Positions 59,239-64,000 of a stretch of 64,000 nt of DNA are shown in pieces (the stretch's first letter is position 1; each line of letters opens with the position of its first letter). The DNA is taken from positions 68,669-132,668 of the forward strand of contig JBBSWH010000005.1 in assembly GCA_038046385.1 (NCBI GenBank), given 5' to 3'. Origin of the DNA: Nanobdellota archaeon. Its GTDB lineage: Archaea; Nanobdellota; Nanobdellia; Woesearchaeales; GW2011-AR4. The translations under genes were made by a program, and so were the position numbers. The notes under the pieces were generated by a model, which had not been told where the DNA came from, did not search any database, and saw only the letters and a program-made list of their open reading frames with translations.

Positions 59239-59598
59239 TTATATTTTCCTGATTCTTATCTTATCCTCAGATATAACAATAAAATTGCCTAATAGCTTAT
59301 CGCTATAATTTTTGATTATAATTTCCAAAGCGTTTATTTTAGCGCTTGATGACTGGTTTCCCAGCCTAAGCAATATCAAGCCAGATGACTTTAATTTTTC
59401 TTTAAAAACCAAATTGCCAAAATCCTTGTCATTAGTCAGCAATACTCTTTTTTCGTCGGCTGCAATTTTTAGAATTTTAATATCCTCCAATGAAGGATAA
59501 TCTTCAGCAATAGAAGATGTGCTGTAGCCTTTTCTTCTGAGATAATTGACTACAGGAAAATCTACATTTTCATCTACAATAAATCTTATTTTAGCCAT
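59239..59598 (-). CDS. DUF5615 (Mut7-C/PIN-like) putative toxin
   Basis: FIVDENV, D..IL..A, LLTNDKDFG. Confidence 0.88.
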   Translation of the reverse strand: MAKIRFIVDENVDFPVVNYLRRKGYSTSSIAEDYPSLEDIKILKIAADEKRVLLTNDKDFGNLVFKEKLKSSGLILLRLGNQSSSAKINALEIIIKNYSDKLLGNFIVISEDKIRIRKI

Positions 59599-59612
59599 AT
59601 TAAGCGGTTTTT

Positions 59613-59849
59613 CTACTGAGTAAGCGGAAAAATCTCTGTATTCTCCATAAGCGCTTCTGCATACAATATAGCTGCCCTTACATCGTCTTCTGTCAGCCTT
59701 GGGTAATCTTCAAGAATTTCTTTGATGTCGATATTTTGCCCCAGTTTTTTGAGAATTAACTCTACAGAAATCCTTGTGCCTTTTATTACAGGCTTGCCTA
59801 CCATTATTTTGGGGTTAACAACAATCCTGTCCAATAATCTTTTTTCCAT
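59613..59849 (-). CDS. DUF433 putative antitoxin
   Basis: P.IMVGKPVIKGTRISV, EILEDYP.LT.DDV.AA..YA. Confidence 0.92.
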   Translation of the reverse strand: MEKRLLDRIVVNPKIMVGKPVIKGTRISVELILKKLGQNIDIKEILEDYPRLTEDDVRAAILYAEALMENTEIFPLTQ

Positions 59850-59885
59850 TTTAGCTTATTATGACTCCTTAATATTTAAATCTAA

Positions 59886-59980
59886 CGAAAATGCGGCATT
59901 TTCGGAAAGTTTAAATTTGAAAAATTCTCAATTCCGAGAAAATCTATAGATTTTCTGGACCAAAAAATCTTTGATTTTAG
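59886..59980. repeat. cluster of GAAAAT/ATTTTC-type palindromes
   Basis: cgaaaatgc-g-gcattttcg; agaaaatcta/tagattttct; aaaatc-ttt-gatttt. Confidence 0.7.
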
Positions 59981-59981
59981 A

Positions 59982-60014
59982 AATCTCGTTTGCACTCATT
60001 AAAGGAATCTTCAT
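59982..60014 (-). pseudogene. probable 11-codon hicA remnant
   Basis: TGATG overlap with the hicB stop; MKIPLMSANEI resembles HicA N-termini; sequence then switches to the palindrome cluster. Confidence 0.5.
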
Positions 60015-60223
60015 CAAACTTCAACTTGCTGCAGGCTTAAAAATTTGGTTTTTGGCTCATGTTTCTTCTTTGAGTGCGTATAGAGGGATATAGCCTCTTT
60101 TGTCCTTTTGATTAATTCGTCATATGTCTTGGCTTGGGTGTGGCAGCCTGGAAGCCCAACTACCTCTGAAATTAGATACCCATCTTCTCCCTCTTCAACT
60201 ATCACATTATATTTTTCTGCCAT
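60014..60223 (-). CDS. hicB: HicB-family antitoxin
   Basis: E..EDGY...V..LPGCHTQAKT.DEL....KEAI.LY. Confidence 0.92.
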   Translation of the reverse strand: MAEKYNVIVEEGEDGYLISEVVGLPGCHTQAKTYDELIKRTKEAISLYTHSKKKHEPKTKFLSLQQVEV

Positions 60224-60254
60224 TGCATCTTAAAGATAATTTAACTATTTAAAC

Positions 60255-60449
60255 TTATCCAATCCTTATTATAACGCTTCCGTTTACTTTTGAGATGTAA
60301 TCGTTCTGTGCGGATTGTGTGCTTTGTTGTTGCTGACCTGGTGCAACGTGCCATCCAGGATGCATAAATACCAGGATTCTGTCAGTTGGCTGCTCTTCAC
60401 TGTAGTCTTCTATTGCATATCCTATAATTCTTCCTGAATTAACTGCTTT
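60255..60449 (-). pseudogene. orphan 3'-end copy 2 (64 codons plus stop) of the fibre-like gene
   Basis: KAVNSGRIIGYAIEDYSEEQPTDRILVFMHPGWHVAPGQQQQSTQSAQNDYISKVNGSVIIRIG*. Confidence 0.92.
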
Positions 60450-60472
60450 TGGAGCTTATTTTTGTATTTATT

Positions 60473-61559: not shown

Positions 61560-61588
61560 CTGCTAGAGAGAATGCATTACTTATTTAA

Positions 61589-61624
61589 ATAACTATCGTT
61601 ATTTTTTAAAGTAACGATTGTTAT
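61589..61624. promoter_or_regulatory. inverted repeat upstream of MNT-HEPN, candidate autoregulatory operator
   Basis: ataactatcgtta...taacgattgttat next to a TTTAAATA box. Confidence 0.55.
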
Positions 61625-61639
61625 TTATTGCAAATTTAA

Positions 61640-61750
61640 TCAGCCAATTCTTATTATAACGCTGCCGTTTACTTTTGAGATGAAATCATTCTTATTTTGG
61701 CTTCCTTTGCCTTGGGCTTCGCCGGGGGCAGTGTACCATCCAGGCTGCAT
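61640..61750 (-). pseudogene. orphan 3'-end copy 1 (36 codons plus stop) of the fibre-like gene
   Basis: MQPGWYTAPGEAQGKGSQNKNDFISKVNGSVIIRIG*. Confidence 0.93.
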
Positions 61751-61763
61751 GAAATGATTTAAA

Positions 61764-62189
61764 CTAAAGCTTTTTCAATTCTTCCATCGGAGTTGCTGTT
61801 TTAACAGTGCCGGCTGCTTTCTCTTTTTGCCTTTTGTCAAGGGTTATCAGGCTTACATTAAATATAGAAGCAATTGCGACATAAATAGCATCAGCGCCCC
61901 TGAGATGTTTCTCTGCCGCAAACCTTGCTGCAAGATTTGACACCTCGGCATCTACAGGAACAAAAACAAAATTAGGTATTTTTCTTAATTCTGCCACAAA
62001 TTGCAAAGGCAATTTGCTATTTCTTGCCCCTGCAGAAAGCGCAGATGCCACTTCCGGCACTATTATTTCAGGCAATACAACAGGGATATTCTGATTTTTT
62101 ATTTTAAGCAGCAGCCTCTTGCTGTATTCATGGTGCTCTTCGCTTTTGATAATAGAATTTGTTATTACGCTCGCATCTAGGCAGTACAT
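61764..62189 (-). CDS. vapC: VapC-type PIN toxin
   Basis: CLDASV, EVASA, LRGADAIYVA, LITLDK.Q. Confidence 0.9.
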   Translation of the reverse strand: MYCLDASVITNSIIKSEEHHEYSKRLLLKIKNQNIPVVLPEIIVPEVASALSAGARNSKLPLQFVAELRKIPNFVFVPVDAEVSNLAARFAAEKHLRGADAIYVAIASIFNVSLITLDKRQKEKAAGTVKTATPMEELKKL

Positions 62190-62191
62190 TT

Positions 62192-62389
62192 TTACCTTCT
62201 ATTTTCTGAAATAATCTGCCAGCTGGATTTTTTTAATTGCCAGCTGCCGCTTATTTTTCCCCCTATTTTTTCCATATTATTCCATGCAGCCGGCATCTTA
62301 GCCCCTGATCTGATGCTTGCTATCTGAATGGGCATTATCTTGATTCCAATCATTCTTATCCTGCTTTCCAGATCTTCTAAGGCTTCCAT
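62192..62389 (-). CDS. putative cognate antitoxin
   Basis: 65 aa ORF immediately upstream of vapC, ending ISENRR. Confidence 0.65.
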   Translation of the reverse strand: MEALEDLESRIRMIGIKIMPIQIASIRSGAKMPAAWNNMEKIGGKISGSWQLKKSSWQIISENRR

Positions 62390-62431
62390 TTAATTCACTT
62401 TAAATTATAAATCATTTTCTTCTATTTAAAT

Positions 62432-64000
62432 TTATCCAATCCTAATTATTACGCTTCCGTTTACTTTTGAGATGTAATCATTCTTATTTTGGCTTGCCTG
62501 GCTTCCTTGTGCTTCGCCGGGGGCAGTGTACCACCCAGGCTGCATCATTATGAGGATTTTTCCGTTCTTTGTCTCTTTGCTGTAATCTTCCAGTGCATAT
62601 CCTATTATCTTTCCTGAGCTTATTGATTTTACCGCATACCCTTCTGCGGCTGATGAAGTTAATGGATCGCCTGCTTTTATCGGCCCGTTTTCCAATGATA
62701 CTTTTACCGGCGCCCTTCCCACCAATGCAACCGGAACATTTCTTCCGCTTGTGTGGTCTGAAGCAGACCCCATGATGAATGACGGGTCTGATGACACGAC
62801 TCCCACAATCCTTGGGTCATTTTCTGTTTCTGTTTTTGATATAATAGCTACTTTTGAGGACAATAATTTGTCCTTTCCTGTTGAGCCGCCAATGTAAGTG
62901 TCTTTTGACTTTAATTTTTTTATTATTTTTTCCTTTAATTTTTCTTCAAACGCTGAAGTGAATTCTTCTGTTATTTCTGATGGAGCTTGGGATGTTATTT
63001 CGTTTTGCGCTTCGATTGGAGCACTGATTTCATTTACGGCTTCTTCCTGCACTGGCTGCTGCTCGTTAAGCCCTTGTTCTTCTGTTTGCGCCGGTGTTTC
63101 TTCAAGTATCTGGCTTAAGTCAGTTTCCAGCCCTACTTCGTTGATAACGTTTCCTGTAATTTTGCTTGGAACCTGTATATTTAATGCATATGCGTCTGCT
63201 ATTTCCTCCAATTGCTCTGAAAGGGCTTCAGGGTCTTTTGAGTTTAATCTCTGCATCAGCTCTTTCAATTGATCTTCTTTTACATCCAATACGGATGCCG
63301 CAAGATACTCCTCGTATTTCACTTCAGAAACTATGACAACATCTCCTGCCTCTATGCTTTCATCTGCTGTGTAGAATCTTTCTGCAAGGTCGAATGCGCT
63401 TCCCGAGATTGTTCCATCTGCTTCCATCGCTCCCATCGGTATTGTTCTTGACGAGCATGCTGTTCCTGATGCGTCGTCAAGGCAGACGTTTCCTACAATT
63501 GACAGTGTTTGGGTTGGGTTTGAGTTGTTGATGCCGACGTTGCCTGACGTATTATCAACAAAAAATATATTTGAAGTTTGACCTATTGAAAAGTTTCCAG
63601 TAAAGTTGGCTTTTCCTTTTACATCTAAAGTTGTTGCTGGAGAAGTTGTTCCGATGCCGACGTTGCCGGTGCTATCAACTCTAACCCTTTCCACCAAACC
63701 CAACCCAGTACTTGGTTGTGTCAAAATACGAAACGCACCAGCCGCATTCCCTAATATTGCATTTTCCTTATATCCATCAATCGCCGCGAAAAACTCAAGC
63801 GAAGAAGGAGTATTTTTGTAACCCGCGAACTGAATACCACCCCCCACACCCGTAGCTGGCGCCGTAGTGTCTTGAATTATAGTTTTCCAGTAACTCCCTG
63901 CTGGTTTCGTATCTGATGAAGACACGTGTAGTGTGCCTTGTGGCGTCGTCGTCCCGATGCCGACGTTGCCGCCCGTATCTATTATTAGCCTGTCTGCGCC
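62432..64000 (-). CDS. large fibre/adhesin-like protein, C-terminal part (continues past window edge)
   Basis: Frame open to 64000; repeated GNVGIGTTxP units; C-terminal DLAERF...GDVV...GVVSSDP...VALVGRAPVKV...GPIKAGDPLTSS module, resembling the intramolecular-chaperone tails of fibre proteins. Confidence 0.85.
   Translation of the reverse strand, partial: GADRLIIDTGGNVGIGTTTPQGTLHVSSSDTKPAGSYWKTIIQDTTAPATGVGGGIQFAGYKNTPSSLEFFAAIDGYKENAILGNAAGAFRILTQPSTGLGLVERVRVDSTGNVGIGTTSPATTLDVKGKANFTGNFSIGQTSNIFFVDNTSGNVGINNSNPTQTLSIVGNVCLDDASGTACSSRTIPMGAMEADGTISGSAFDLAERFYTADESIEAGDVVIVSEVKYEEYLAASVLDVKEDQLKELMQRLNSKDPEALSEQLEEIADAYALNIQVPSKITGNVINEVGLETDLSQILEETPAQTEEQGLNEQQPVQEEAVNEISAPIEAQNEITSQAPSEITEEFTSAFEEKLKEKIIKKLKSKDTYIGGSTGKDKLLSSKVAIISKTETENDPRIVGVVSSDPSFIMGSASDHTSGRNVPVALVGRAPVKVSLENGPIKAGDPLTSSAAEGYAVKSISSGKIIGYALEDYSKETKNGKILIMMQPGWYTAPGEAQGSQASQNKNDYISKVNGSVIIRIG

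Follow-up and report, generated by a model that had tools for sequence, protein, structure and literature searches.

The array of tails and toxin-antitoxin cassettes

The DNA analysed here, called the window, is a whole stretch of 64,000 nucleotides from a member of the Woesearchaeota, i.e., a DPANN archaeon, from groundwater. Its genome is labelled G000; the other genomes (G-numbers) are all metagenome-assembled genomes (MAGs), L-numbers denote loci or public contigs, and C-numbers denote contigs within a genome. At one end of the window lies the 3' part of a gene for what appears to be a fibre-like surface protein, here called the host gene. The last codons of this gene, i.e., its tail, recur downstream on the minus strand, and four modules of small genes are placed between the tail copies. 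By sequence, these modules would be type II toxin-antitoxin (TA) modules, since adjacent small genes belong to paired toxin and antitoxin families, and the same pairs were found in relatives; the toxins are putative. An array of repeated tails had been described in an earlier note on this DNA, and its coordinates and gene order all hold. The array was extended by a fourth tail remnant and recurs across a Woesearchaeota clade. The tails are as follows.

62432..62640, minus strand: T0, live tail, last 65-69 codons of the host gene, ending in ...KVNGSVIIRIG and a stop codon (from alignments)
61640..61750, minus strand: T1, orphan tail 1, 36 codons and a stop codon, 89% identical to T0
60255..60450, minus strand: T2, orphan tail 2, 64 codons and a stop codon, 75% identical to T0
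59217..59240, minus strand: T3, terminal remnant, N-S-I-I-R-I-G and a stop codon, overlapping the DUF5615 stop codon (pattern match 59217-59234)

A degenerate DNA pattern of the last six codons (IIRIG and the stop codon) matched exactly four times in the 64 kb and not once in each of 100 shuffles. The four matches were the three tails seen earlier and the new T3, a remnant of 18-24 nt right after the DUF5615 stop codon. The orphans in the window are 24, 111, and 195 nt long. The two longer ones retain the frame and the stop codon, as had been claimed, and divergence is indeed greater in the distal tail. T1 is 89% identical to T0 over 107-110 nt (88-95% in another alignment of the same stretch), T2 is 75% identical over approximately 196 nt, and then only the remnant T3 follows. 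Between T3 and T1, three differences were counted manually over 18 nt, all at third codon positions.

The downstream order is T0, 65-aa open reading frame (ORF), PIN, T1, MNT, HEPN-like, T2, HicB, hicA stump, DUF433, DUF5615, and T3. The cargo between the tail copies therefore consists of PIN, MNT-HEPN, HicB with a truncated HicA, and DUF433-DUF5615 modules.

62192..62389, minus strand: cassette 1, gene 1, 65-aa ORF, no family match in Pfam or NCBIfam
61764..62189, minus strand: cassette 1, gene 2, PIN-domain (VapC-like) putative toxin, Pfam PF01850, E 5.7e-15
60942..61559, minus strand: cassette 2, gene 1, MNT-type nucleotidyltransferase, 205 aa, Pfam PF18765 and PF01909
60473..60958, minus strand: cassette 2, gene 2, HEPN-like, 161 aa, PF05168, E 8e-4, below the Pfam cut-off
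60014..60223, minus strand: cassette 3, HicB-like putative antitoxin, 69 aa, PF15919, E 4.9e-5, below the cut-off
59928..60014, minus strand: cassette 3, hicA stump, 28 codons and then a stop codon (from translation)
59613..59849, minus strand: cassette 4, gene 1, DUF433, 78 aa, Pfam, E 2.5e-23
59239..59598, minus strand: cassette 4, gene 2, DUF5615 PIN-like, 119 aa, Pfam, E 1.3e-20

The 65-aa ORF of cassette 1 had been called an antitoxin; its position suggests such a role, but no family match backs the name. The PIN gene of the same cassette had no close homologue among the 42 other genus genomes, where the best match was 27% identical. PIN domains are scattered in G000, with nine matches of which one is in the array, and the DUF433 of cassette 4 was the sole DUF433 match in a search of the genome. 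The HicB of cassette 3 shows 73% nucleotide identity to the HicB-HicA cassette of a related public contig (L056), and this homology ends inside hicA. The idea that a degraded tail remains between cassette 4 and the hicA stump was rejected, as only scattered matches of approximately 39% (manual count) were seen there. A deletion appears to have occurred between these two elements.

A short box, TTTAAATA, precedes each cassette.

62423..62430, minus strand: TTTAAATA box of cassette 1, 41 nt before the ATG at 62389
61582..61589, minus strand: TTTAAATA box of cassette 2, 30 nt before the ATG at 61559
60246..60253, minus strand: TTTAAATA box of cassette 3, 30 nt before the ATG at 60223
59873..59880, minus strand: TTTAAATA box of cassette 4, 31 nt before the ATG at 59849

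The box lies right after the stop codons of the live tail and of tail 2, as stated before. A TATA box at such spacing is the archaeal promoter geometry for leaderless or nearly leaderless mRNA. Because the box stands about 30 nt before the first ATG of each module, it would be the archaeal promoter of each cassette, judged by its geometry, rather than a recombination mark. The potassium channel gene beyond the array carries TTTATATA at -31, i.e., at the same spacing. In relatives, a similar leader (stop codon, AGG, TTTAAATAGT) was found after most tails that precede a cassette and was absent after the last orphan of each array.

Arrays and empty sites in related genomes

Arrays were mapped by six-frame scans, an nhmmer profile, ORF maps, and Pfam searches on the cassettes. 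The tail peptide was present in 7 of 43 genomes of the genus and in 3 of 401 genomes sampled from the order, G000 included; it is rare outside the genus. Scans of public contigs added 9 and 19 loci. Contigs L055, L057-L066, and L068 were scanned for tails only. Arrays of this kind, differing in the content and order of their cassettes, were seen at eight further loci of the genus and its metagenomic relatives. The mapped arrays, read downstream from the live tail, are listed below.

G016: T0, HEPN-MNT, T1, DUF433-DUF5615, T2, DUF4258-DUF2283-DUF2283, T3, flank
G015: T0, DUF433-DUF5615, T1, DUF433-DUF5615, T2, lone DUF433 and DUF433-DUF5615, T3, flank
G048: T0, DUF5678 and unknown ORF, T1, split HEPN and MNT, 740-nt diverged gene-body copy, flank
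L044: T0, unknown ORF and DUF2283, T1, flank
L056: T0, HicB-HicA, T1, HicB-HicA, T2, flank
L067: T0, DUF433-DUF5615, T1, HicB-HicA, T2, flank
G014: T0, MNT-HepT, T1, GAPDH

Beside the live tail, three orphans each were found in G016 and G015, two each in L056 and L067, and one each in G048, G014, and L044. By Pfam, the cassette families across the relatives were DUF433-DUF5615, MNT/HEPN/HepT, HicB-HicA, DUF4258-DUF2283, and PIN. The genes of the distal flank are homologous in G016, G015, G048, L044, and L056 while the cassette content differs; therefore, these arrays are versions of one locus with different content. Related cassettes also occupy different positions. Between the DUF5615 region of cassette 4 in the window and cassette 1 of L067, nucleotide identity is 76%; in G016, cassette 2 matches the last cassette of G015 at 80% identity.

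Sites without cassettes were found as well. In G024 (contig C13) and G018, the tail is directly followed by GAPDH, and in G020 the syntenic LeuRS/potassium channel locus has a tail-bearing gene without a TA array. Sixteen live tails were examined together with their downstream sequence. A recognisable TA module directly followed ten of them, unassigned small ORFs followed two (G024:C6 and L050), and no TA module followed the remaining four (G024:C13, G018, G020, and L070). Both the cargo and the number of orphan tails thus vary between related genomes, and empty sites exist, which is what had been predicted for the locus.

The four modules that were visibly broken all stood at the second position or further from the gene, i.e., the hicA stump in the window, the split HEPN in G048, the lone DUF433 in G015, and a split DUF5615 in G023. 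The gene-body copy of G048 (contig C22; L040 3895-4631) is a 740-nt piece of the fibre gene, 74% identical and without the terminal core, placed after the last cassette and before the flank gene. The junction of this copy with the MNT gene also occurs in G016.

Divergence of the tails and position of the breakpoints

T0 and T1 of the window differ by 9.0 synonymous and 3.0 non-synonymous differences in 36 codons (pS 0.40, pN 0.035, omega 0.06), a signature of purifying selection, whereas T2 against T0 gave an omega of 0.32. The bias to synonymous sites that had been noticed between tail 1 and the live tail is therefore real. Under a neutral-orphan model, in which T1 has been dead since an in-place duplication and T0 is constrained, approximately 66% of the changes are expected to be non-synonymous, and the probability of three or fewer among 12 is 0.005. 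These values speak strongly against in-place duplication followed by neutral decay of T1. T1 therefore accumulated its differences from T0 as part of a functional gene, and its orphaning was recent. T2 and T3 are either older or derived from less constrained sequence.

The position of a crossover could be read from G014 (occupied) and G024:C13 (empty), the one pair of such sites that can be polarised. Compared with the empty site, the live tail of G014 was identical at 36/36 nt upstream of the core and at 29/30 within it, but at only 14/40 downstream. For the orphan, the matches were 9/36 nt upstream, 28/30 within the core, and 31/40 on the downstream side, in the region of the GAPDH promoter. 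The crossover was therefore placed within the terminal 30-34 nt, and the orphan has a foreign 5' part. This part arrived together with the cassette and derives from a different tail type; native sequence is limited to the last ~30 nt and the downstream flank. The insert of 768 nt begins just after the stop codon and contains MNT-HepT and a foreign tail-like stretch, D-Y-A-T-K-I, of a kind that forms the live end in other genes. The insert is bordered on both sides by direct repeats of the gene end, and it restores the reading frame.

Two further loci showed mosaic tails. In G016, T0 and T1 show 9 differences in the terminal 24 nt and 4 in the 186 nt upstream (Fisher P 4e-7), and the nine terminal differences are all synonymous, including a Ser AGC/TCT switch. 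The pair is therefore a recombination mosaic, with one of the two ends coming from elsewhere. A similar mosaic was read from the alignments of L044 with G018 and L052 as outgroups.

The earlier note had proposed recombination inside the conserved tail, and the breakpoint seen between occupied and empty sites agrees with this. It had also taken the orphans for former functional alleles rather than decayed duplicates. The second half of this idea stands, as T1 did not decay in place, but the orphan of G014 is a hybrid of donor and host sequence and more than a former allele of the host. Its expectation that an orphan would be met elsewhere as a live gene end followed by the same cargo failed, as no such case was found. 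The nearest live end to T2 in the protein database was P0002 with 46/64 residues (72%), compared with 41/64 (64%) between T2 and T0. For T1, no close live end besides T0 was present in that database.

Independent support for the assembly

Logan contigs from four runs (X3-X6) of two studies, i.e., from independent samples, bridge every tail with 0 mismatches. Record 3 of X3 spans 60139-62093 across T2 and T1, record 4 spans 62253-63422 across T0, and the pieces from X4, X5, and X6 cover single tail junctions. In the alignment, the tails share no exact stretch of 31 nt; therefore, k-mer assembly is unambiguous at the tails. The order of the parts was confirmed by these contigs, and the mis-assembly that had been named as a risk did not show. 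No credible cassette-skipping joint was detected in the contigs of X3-X6 on 57500-64000, although such contigs drop rare variants. A lone joint from 60775 to 62915 has 20 nt on its shorter side, and the other joints all lie in GNVGIGTT repeats of the host gene. None of the RNA runs contained this stretch.

Recombinase search and a second array in G023

In 29 tails from the window and 12 loci, the third codon positions of the core vary freely, including the Ser codon family. Therefore, the tail is conserved at the protein level, not as a fixed DNA site. An attC-like structure was rejected, since tails folded as single-stranded DNA, on both strands, gave no more stable structures than their shuffles (eight folds, z from -0.93 to +1.14) in this structural test, which used no covariance model. 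No dyad symmetry in the tail ends appeared in an inverted-repeat scan or in the folds, with no archaeal dif reference in the comparison. It was also considered whether the terminal 21 nt travel with the downstream cassette. This was not supported: mean identity was 0.75 in the 14 pairs whose downstream elements are homologous and 0.73 in the other 365 (permutation P 0.24). Grouping of tail ends by the upstream element (5 pairs) showed no association.

No integrase had been visible at the locus, and likewise no recombinase gene was found on the array contigs; the contig of the window has no match to PF00589, PF00239, or PF01867. In G000, G014, G015, G016, G048, and G024, PF00589 matched on other contigs only. 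G000 has three tyrosine recombinase genes, i.e., two Xer-like genes and a 429-aa paralogue, all of them elsewhere in the genome, and no serine recombinase or Cas1 was found in it. At least one Xer-like gene was present in every genome searched.

A like architecture was found in G023 behind an unrelated tail (...GSLAENVGFG and a stop codon), with at least five orphan copies of the 3' end of that gene. The gene, called tail-prime gene here, encodes approximately 660-750 aa and was matched in 29 of 43 genomes of the genus. Multiple tail-prime matches were seen in G001 and G053. The array is spread over contigs that break inside the repeat.

L118 (C78:1-5914): G023 array contig
L119 (C175): G023 array contig
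L120 (C146): G023 array contig

Downstream of the live end, C175 and C78 carry an AF2212-like/PIN-like pair, MNT-HEPN, two DUF433-DUF5615 modules, and a further nucleotidyltransferase module. Behind each of these modules stands a copy of the tail of the same gene, with an identity of 94-95% proximally, then 78%, and 77-82% distally. The MNT of the MNT-HEPN module is 75% identical to that of cassette 2 in the window, though it lies behind a different gene tail. Different orphans of G023 have 5' boundaries in common, i.e., twice at query positions 13-15 and twice at 152-153, and lengths reach approximately 380 nt.

Host gene, flanking genes, and a hairpin element

62432..64000, minus strand: host gene, 3' part, 522 codons, ORF, fibre-like surface protein with GNVGIGTT repeats
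58656..59132, minus strand: distal flank, potassium channel gene with two transmembrane segments, Pfam PF07885
59146..59216 (core 59170-59209), minus strand: conserved hairpin directly after T3, followed by the TATA box of the potassium channel gene

The host gene is cut at window position 64000, which is the contig end. In the part encoded by the last 522 codons, the protein has GNVGIGTT-type repeats, an acidic linker, and a beta-rich C-terminal domain, and it terminates in ...KVNGSVIIRIG. No family of Pfam or NCBIfam matched. It was labelled as a putative fibre-like surface protein because the repeat part weakly resembles the Bdellovibrio fibre protein Bd2133 (PDB 8ond, E 4e-4). A structure predicted for the last 351 residues from a 13-row alignment had a mean predicted local distance difference test score (pLDDT) of 52, with the tail residues 316-351 below 50.

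The N-terminal part of the gene with a signal peptide is probably found at the start of contig C6 of the same genome (C6:2-1318, 439 codons). Upstream of the gene start on this contig (C6:1-5000, L121), a 173-aa ORF of helix-turn-helix type, a convergent AbrB-like/PIN pair, and an orthologue of the G023 tail-prime gene were seen. The tail-prime gene of G000 sits just upstream of the fibre gene; therefore, the two tail-bearing genes are neighbours in one surface-protein cluster. On the distal side, the potassium channel gene has its counterpart in the syntenic locus of G020, where it adjoins the tail-bearing gene with no TA array. In G024, the end of C6 (L021) and the start of C13 (L022) carry an identical fibre-gene stretch of approximately 33 codons at the contig ends, and then two different tails. 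One tail is followed by GAPDH, and the other by small ORFs including a GNAT acetyltransferase. The shared stretch represents either two paralogues or an unresolved array.

The hairpin of approximately 40 nt is composed of TTGGTCAAGC, stem, loop, stem, and GGTTG. Ten pairs were predicted, and three of them are kept by compensatory changes. It stands directly after the tail stop codon in three arrays, i.e., in the window, at L020 7297-7336, and at L041 6028-6067. In G016, a 9-nt copy of the tail end (TGGGTAAAG) is present on both sides of the hairpin. Dispersed copies are found in G000 at C9:29230, C3:26360 and 26478, C10:38436, and C1:46702 and 79546, and the hairpin may be a mobile element like a miniature inverted-repeat transposable element. 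One copy lies inside a transfer RNA (tRNA) intron of approximately 50 nt (L080 1457-1581, G000:C3 ~26316-26440); this tRNA was scored with 57 bits by the Rfam tRNA model and missed by ARAGORN. A second copy is placed approximately 120 nt downstream, after a tRNA-like stretch recognised by no tool. At L081 ~1440-1570 (G000:C10 ~38375-38505), a 29-nt direct repeat borders the hairpin on either side and includes the start codon and initial codons of a Spt5/NusG-like gene. This repeat amounts to an orphan gene head and mirrors the orphan tails.

Proposed mechanism and alternatives

It is reasonable to consider that tail-flanked TA cassettes are inserted by homology, and that the locus behaves like an integron without an integrase; we put the chance of this at about one half. 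The protein-conserved 3' end of the fibre gene would serve as a portable homology arm. The mobile unit would comprise the stop codon region, the leader with the TATA box, a two-gene type II TA module, and a fragment of the gene tail. It would leave an array as a circle through tail-tail recombination, or it would be taken up as a linear tail-cassette-tail fragment. The unit would then recombine with a resident gene tail by a Campbell-type single crossover or by two crossovers, with RadA-type recombination as the candidate agent. The resident frame would be kept, the part past the crossover, including the stop codon, would be replaced, and the original gene end would be displaced downstream as an orphan with a donor-derived 5' part. 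Cassettes would stack mostly proximally to the gene while older ones decay distally. Proximal growth is suggested because divergence rises distally and the four broken modules stand at the second or later positions. The TA modules would probably stabilise the array, since their loss by tail-tail recombination would free the toxin. For this role, an analogy is offered by the TA cassettes of chromosomal integrons in the passages of PMC13108822 that deal with them.

Several observations weigh against insertion by homology alone. The same cassette families and the same leader (AGGTTTAAATAGT) right after the stop codon are flanked by two unrelated tails; therefore, at least one illegitimate or enzyme-driven step is needed. 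Cassettes common to several species are only 69-80% identical, and no recent transfer was caught. No intermediate of excision or insertion and no cassette polymorphism were seen in the contigs of the four runs, which hold one arrangement; this is a weak objection, since rare variants are dropped from such contigs. Tails that are 95-100% identical, as in G048, could be confused in the assembly of MAGs. Finally, the codons at -5 and -4 are ATA in 27 and AGG in 26 of the 29 tails, compared with shares of 44% of Ile codons for ATA and 36% of Arg codons for AGG in the long ORFs of the window. All three mappable breakpoints (G014, G016, and L044) are compatible with one spot at the Asn-Gly codons. 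This shared spot and the ATA-AGG invariance lean towards a defined site.

Such a site would be used if a site-specific recombinase acting in trans, e.g., a Xer-like tyrosine recombinase, inserted and excised the cassettes at the tail end or leader; the arrays would then be akin to integron cassette clusters without their integrase or to Xer-dependent dif modules. Such a recombinase appears unlikely to us, even though the three breakpoints fit one position at AAYGG, ATA-AGG hardly changes at its synonymous positions, and both tail types have the same leader after their stop codon. Xer-like genes are also at hand in every genome searched, with two and the 429-aa paralogue in G000, and clusters of cassettes without an integrase are known in Archaea from the relevant part of PMC9668308. 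However, the arrays stand on two unrelated tails, and the third codon positions of the core are mostly variable, the Ser family included. The tail ends showed neither an attC-like fold nor, in the repeat scan, dyad symmetry, no array contig carries a recombinase gene, and the terminal 21 nt do not move with the downstream cassette (P 0.24).

In a displacement of the C-terminus, as in Rhs and type VI secretion system (T6SS) loci and as the earlier note had proposed, incoming DNA with a gene 3' end and a cassette would use a homology anchor in the gene body and an illegitimate join upstream of the old tail, and the whole orphan would be a former host allele. The gene-body copy that G048 retains distal to its cassettes (740 nt, 74% identical) is in line with it, and so are the variable 5' ends of the orphans (24/111/195 nt in the window and up to ~380 nt in G023) and the divergence growing with distance from the gene. 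The model has been published for T6SS effector-immunity arrays, according to the section of PMC5361080 on them. Against it, the foreign tail-like stretch of G014 joins the native core in frame and in register, which a random illegitimate joint would not do. The displaced pieces are also without a functional tip domain, and the shared 5' boundaries of the G023 orphans fit ready-made units better than fresh illegitimate joints. We consider this displacement improbable.

It is also conceivable, at a low probability, that a dedicated mechanism places promoter-bearing TA cassettes at the stop codons of surface genes and copies a variable length of the target 3' end. This would explain why the same cassette families and leader lie behind two unrelated tails, and it would explain the target duplications of 9 and 29 nt that flank the hairpin element. 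If true, it would be a new kind of cassette capture, i.e., not an integron, a transposon, or a classic integrase.

In-place tandem duplication with neutral decay and separate arrival of the TA genes, or an assembly artefact threading strain variants, is very improbable: direct repeats can arise from slippage or unequal crossing-over and the genome is a MAG whose contig breaks inside the host gene, but omega of 0.06 and P of 0.005 oppose neutral decay, the orphans have foreign 5' parts, contigs of independent samples from two studies bridge each tail with 0 mismatches, and no exact match between the tails reaches 31 nt.

The arrays have a meaning for the biology of DPANN archaea, which have tiny genomes and few recognisable mobile elements, and whose gain and retention of accessory genes are poorly known. 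The arrays offer a simple route, in which a protein-conserved gene end, present in several surface genes and across species, would be a shared landing pad. TA modules could stack, shuffle, and be lost there with the host gene left intact and no recombinase encoded by the element. Should insertion be driven by homology alone, no integron is needed for integron-like arrays to form; otherwise, an unknown recombination activity exists. The ordered orphans would record gene ends that were once functional and give a way to date gene flow in uncultivated archaea. Fibre genes probably mediate attachment to host cells, and the link with TA suggests, as a testable idea, that TA modules stabilise a surface-protein locus prone to recombination. 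The name of a defence array, given to the locus in the earlier note, was not retained, as a defence role was not borne out.

Comparison with known systems

In full-text searches, supplements excluded (e.g., Data S3-S6 of PMC9668308), no description of TA cassettes separated by host-gene tails was found for archaea. The arrays were therefore compared with systems that show some of their features.

The Xer-dependent dif modules of Acinetobacter plasmids are alike in being small modules, some of them TA, with short recombination sites at their borders and a housekeeping recombinase elsewhere that shuffles them. In the present arrays, however, no dif-like dyad was seen, and the repeats are 24-380 nt of a gene end instead of 28-bp sites with two inverted arms.

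Islands that integrate at gene 3' ends, such as those of tRNA genes, restore the frame, are flanked by direct repeats, can stack in tandem, carry their own integrase, and are many kb long. The likeness lies in the kept frame, the direct repeats of the gene end flanking the insert, and the stacking of tandem insertions. An example is SGI1 at trmE, in the part of PMC8409611 that treats its integration. In contrast to such islands, the units described here have 0.8-1.4 kb and two small genes each, and no recombinase is encoded in them.

Integrons and clusters of attC sites lacking integron-integrases (CALINs) have been reported, including in Archaea, in the relevant passages of PMC9668308. As described there, they are similar to the present arrays in ordered cassettes of one or two genes, a repeated spacer element, frequent TA cargo, and often no neighbouring integrase. 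In integrons, attC sites are imperfect inverted repeats at the cassette ends that form single-stranded hairpins, and most cassettes lack a promoter and depend on a shared one. Here, however, neither attC sites with their fold nor an adjacent IntI, which is also absent in CALINs, nor promoterless cassettes were found; each cassette has a predicted promoter of its own, judged by the geometry of its box. The repeat is moreover the coding sequence of the neighbouring gene and is conserved at the protein level.

A structural likeness proposed for the array was to C-terminal displacement in Rhs and contact-dependent inhibition (CDI) loci, which was reportedly addressed by Jackson et al. in 2009. For T6SS effector-immunity modules of Vibrio cholerae, sequential displacement is described in the portion of PMC5361080 devoted to them. 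In these accounts, the systems share with the present arrays the orphaned 3' fragments downstream of a live gene, an order that reflects age, and a content that varies between strains. There is no integrase in either, and recombination within conserved gene sequence is invoked. The likeness to Rhs thus holds for the structure, i.e., for orphan 3' fragments downstream of a live gene, but not for the displaced pieces. These consist of 7-64 codons of linker and terminus and include no functional tip domain, and a variable toxin tip with an immunity gene was not found. In the accounts of the Rhs/CDI and T6SS arrays, the host protein's own variable toxic tip and its immunity gene make up the cargo. 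In the arrays described here, the cargo would be self-contained, promoter-bearing TA modules that are unrelated to the host protein, in a DPANN archaeon.

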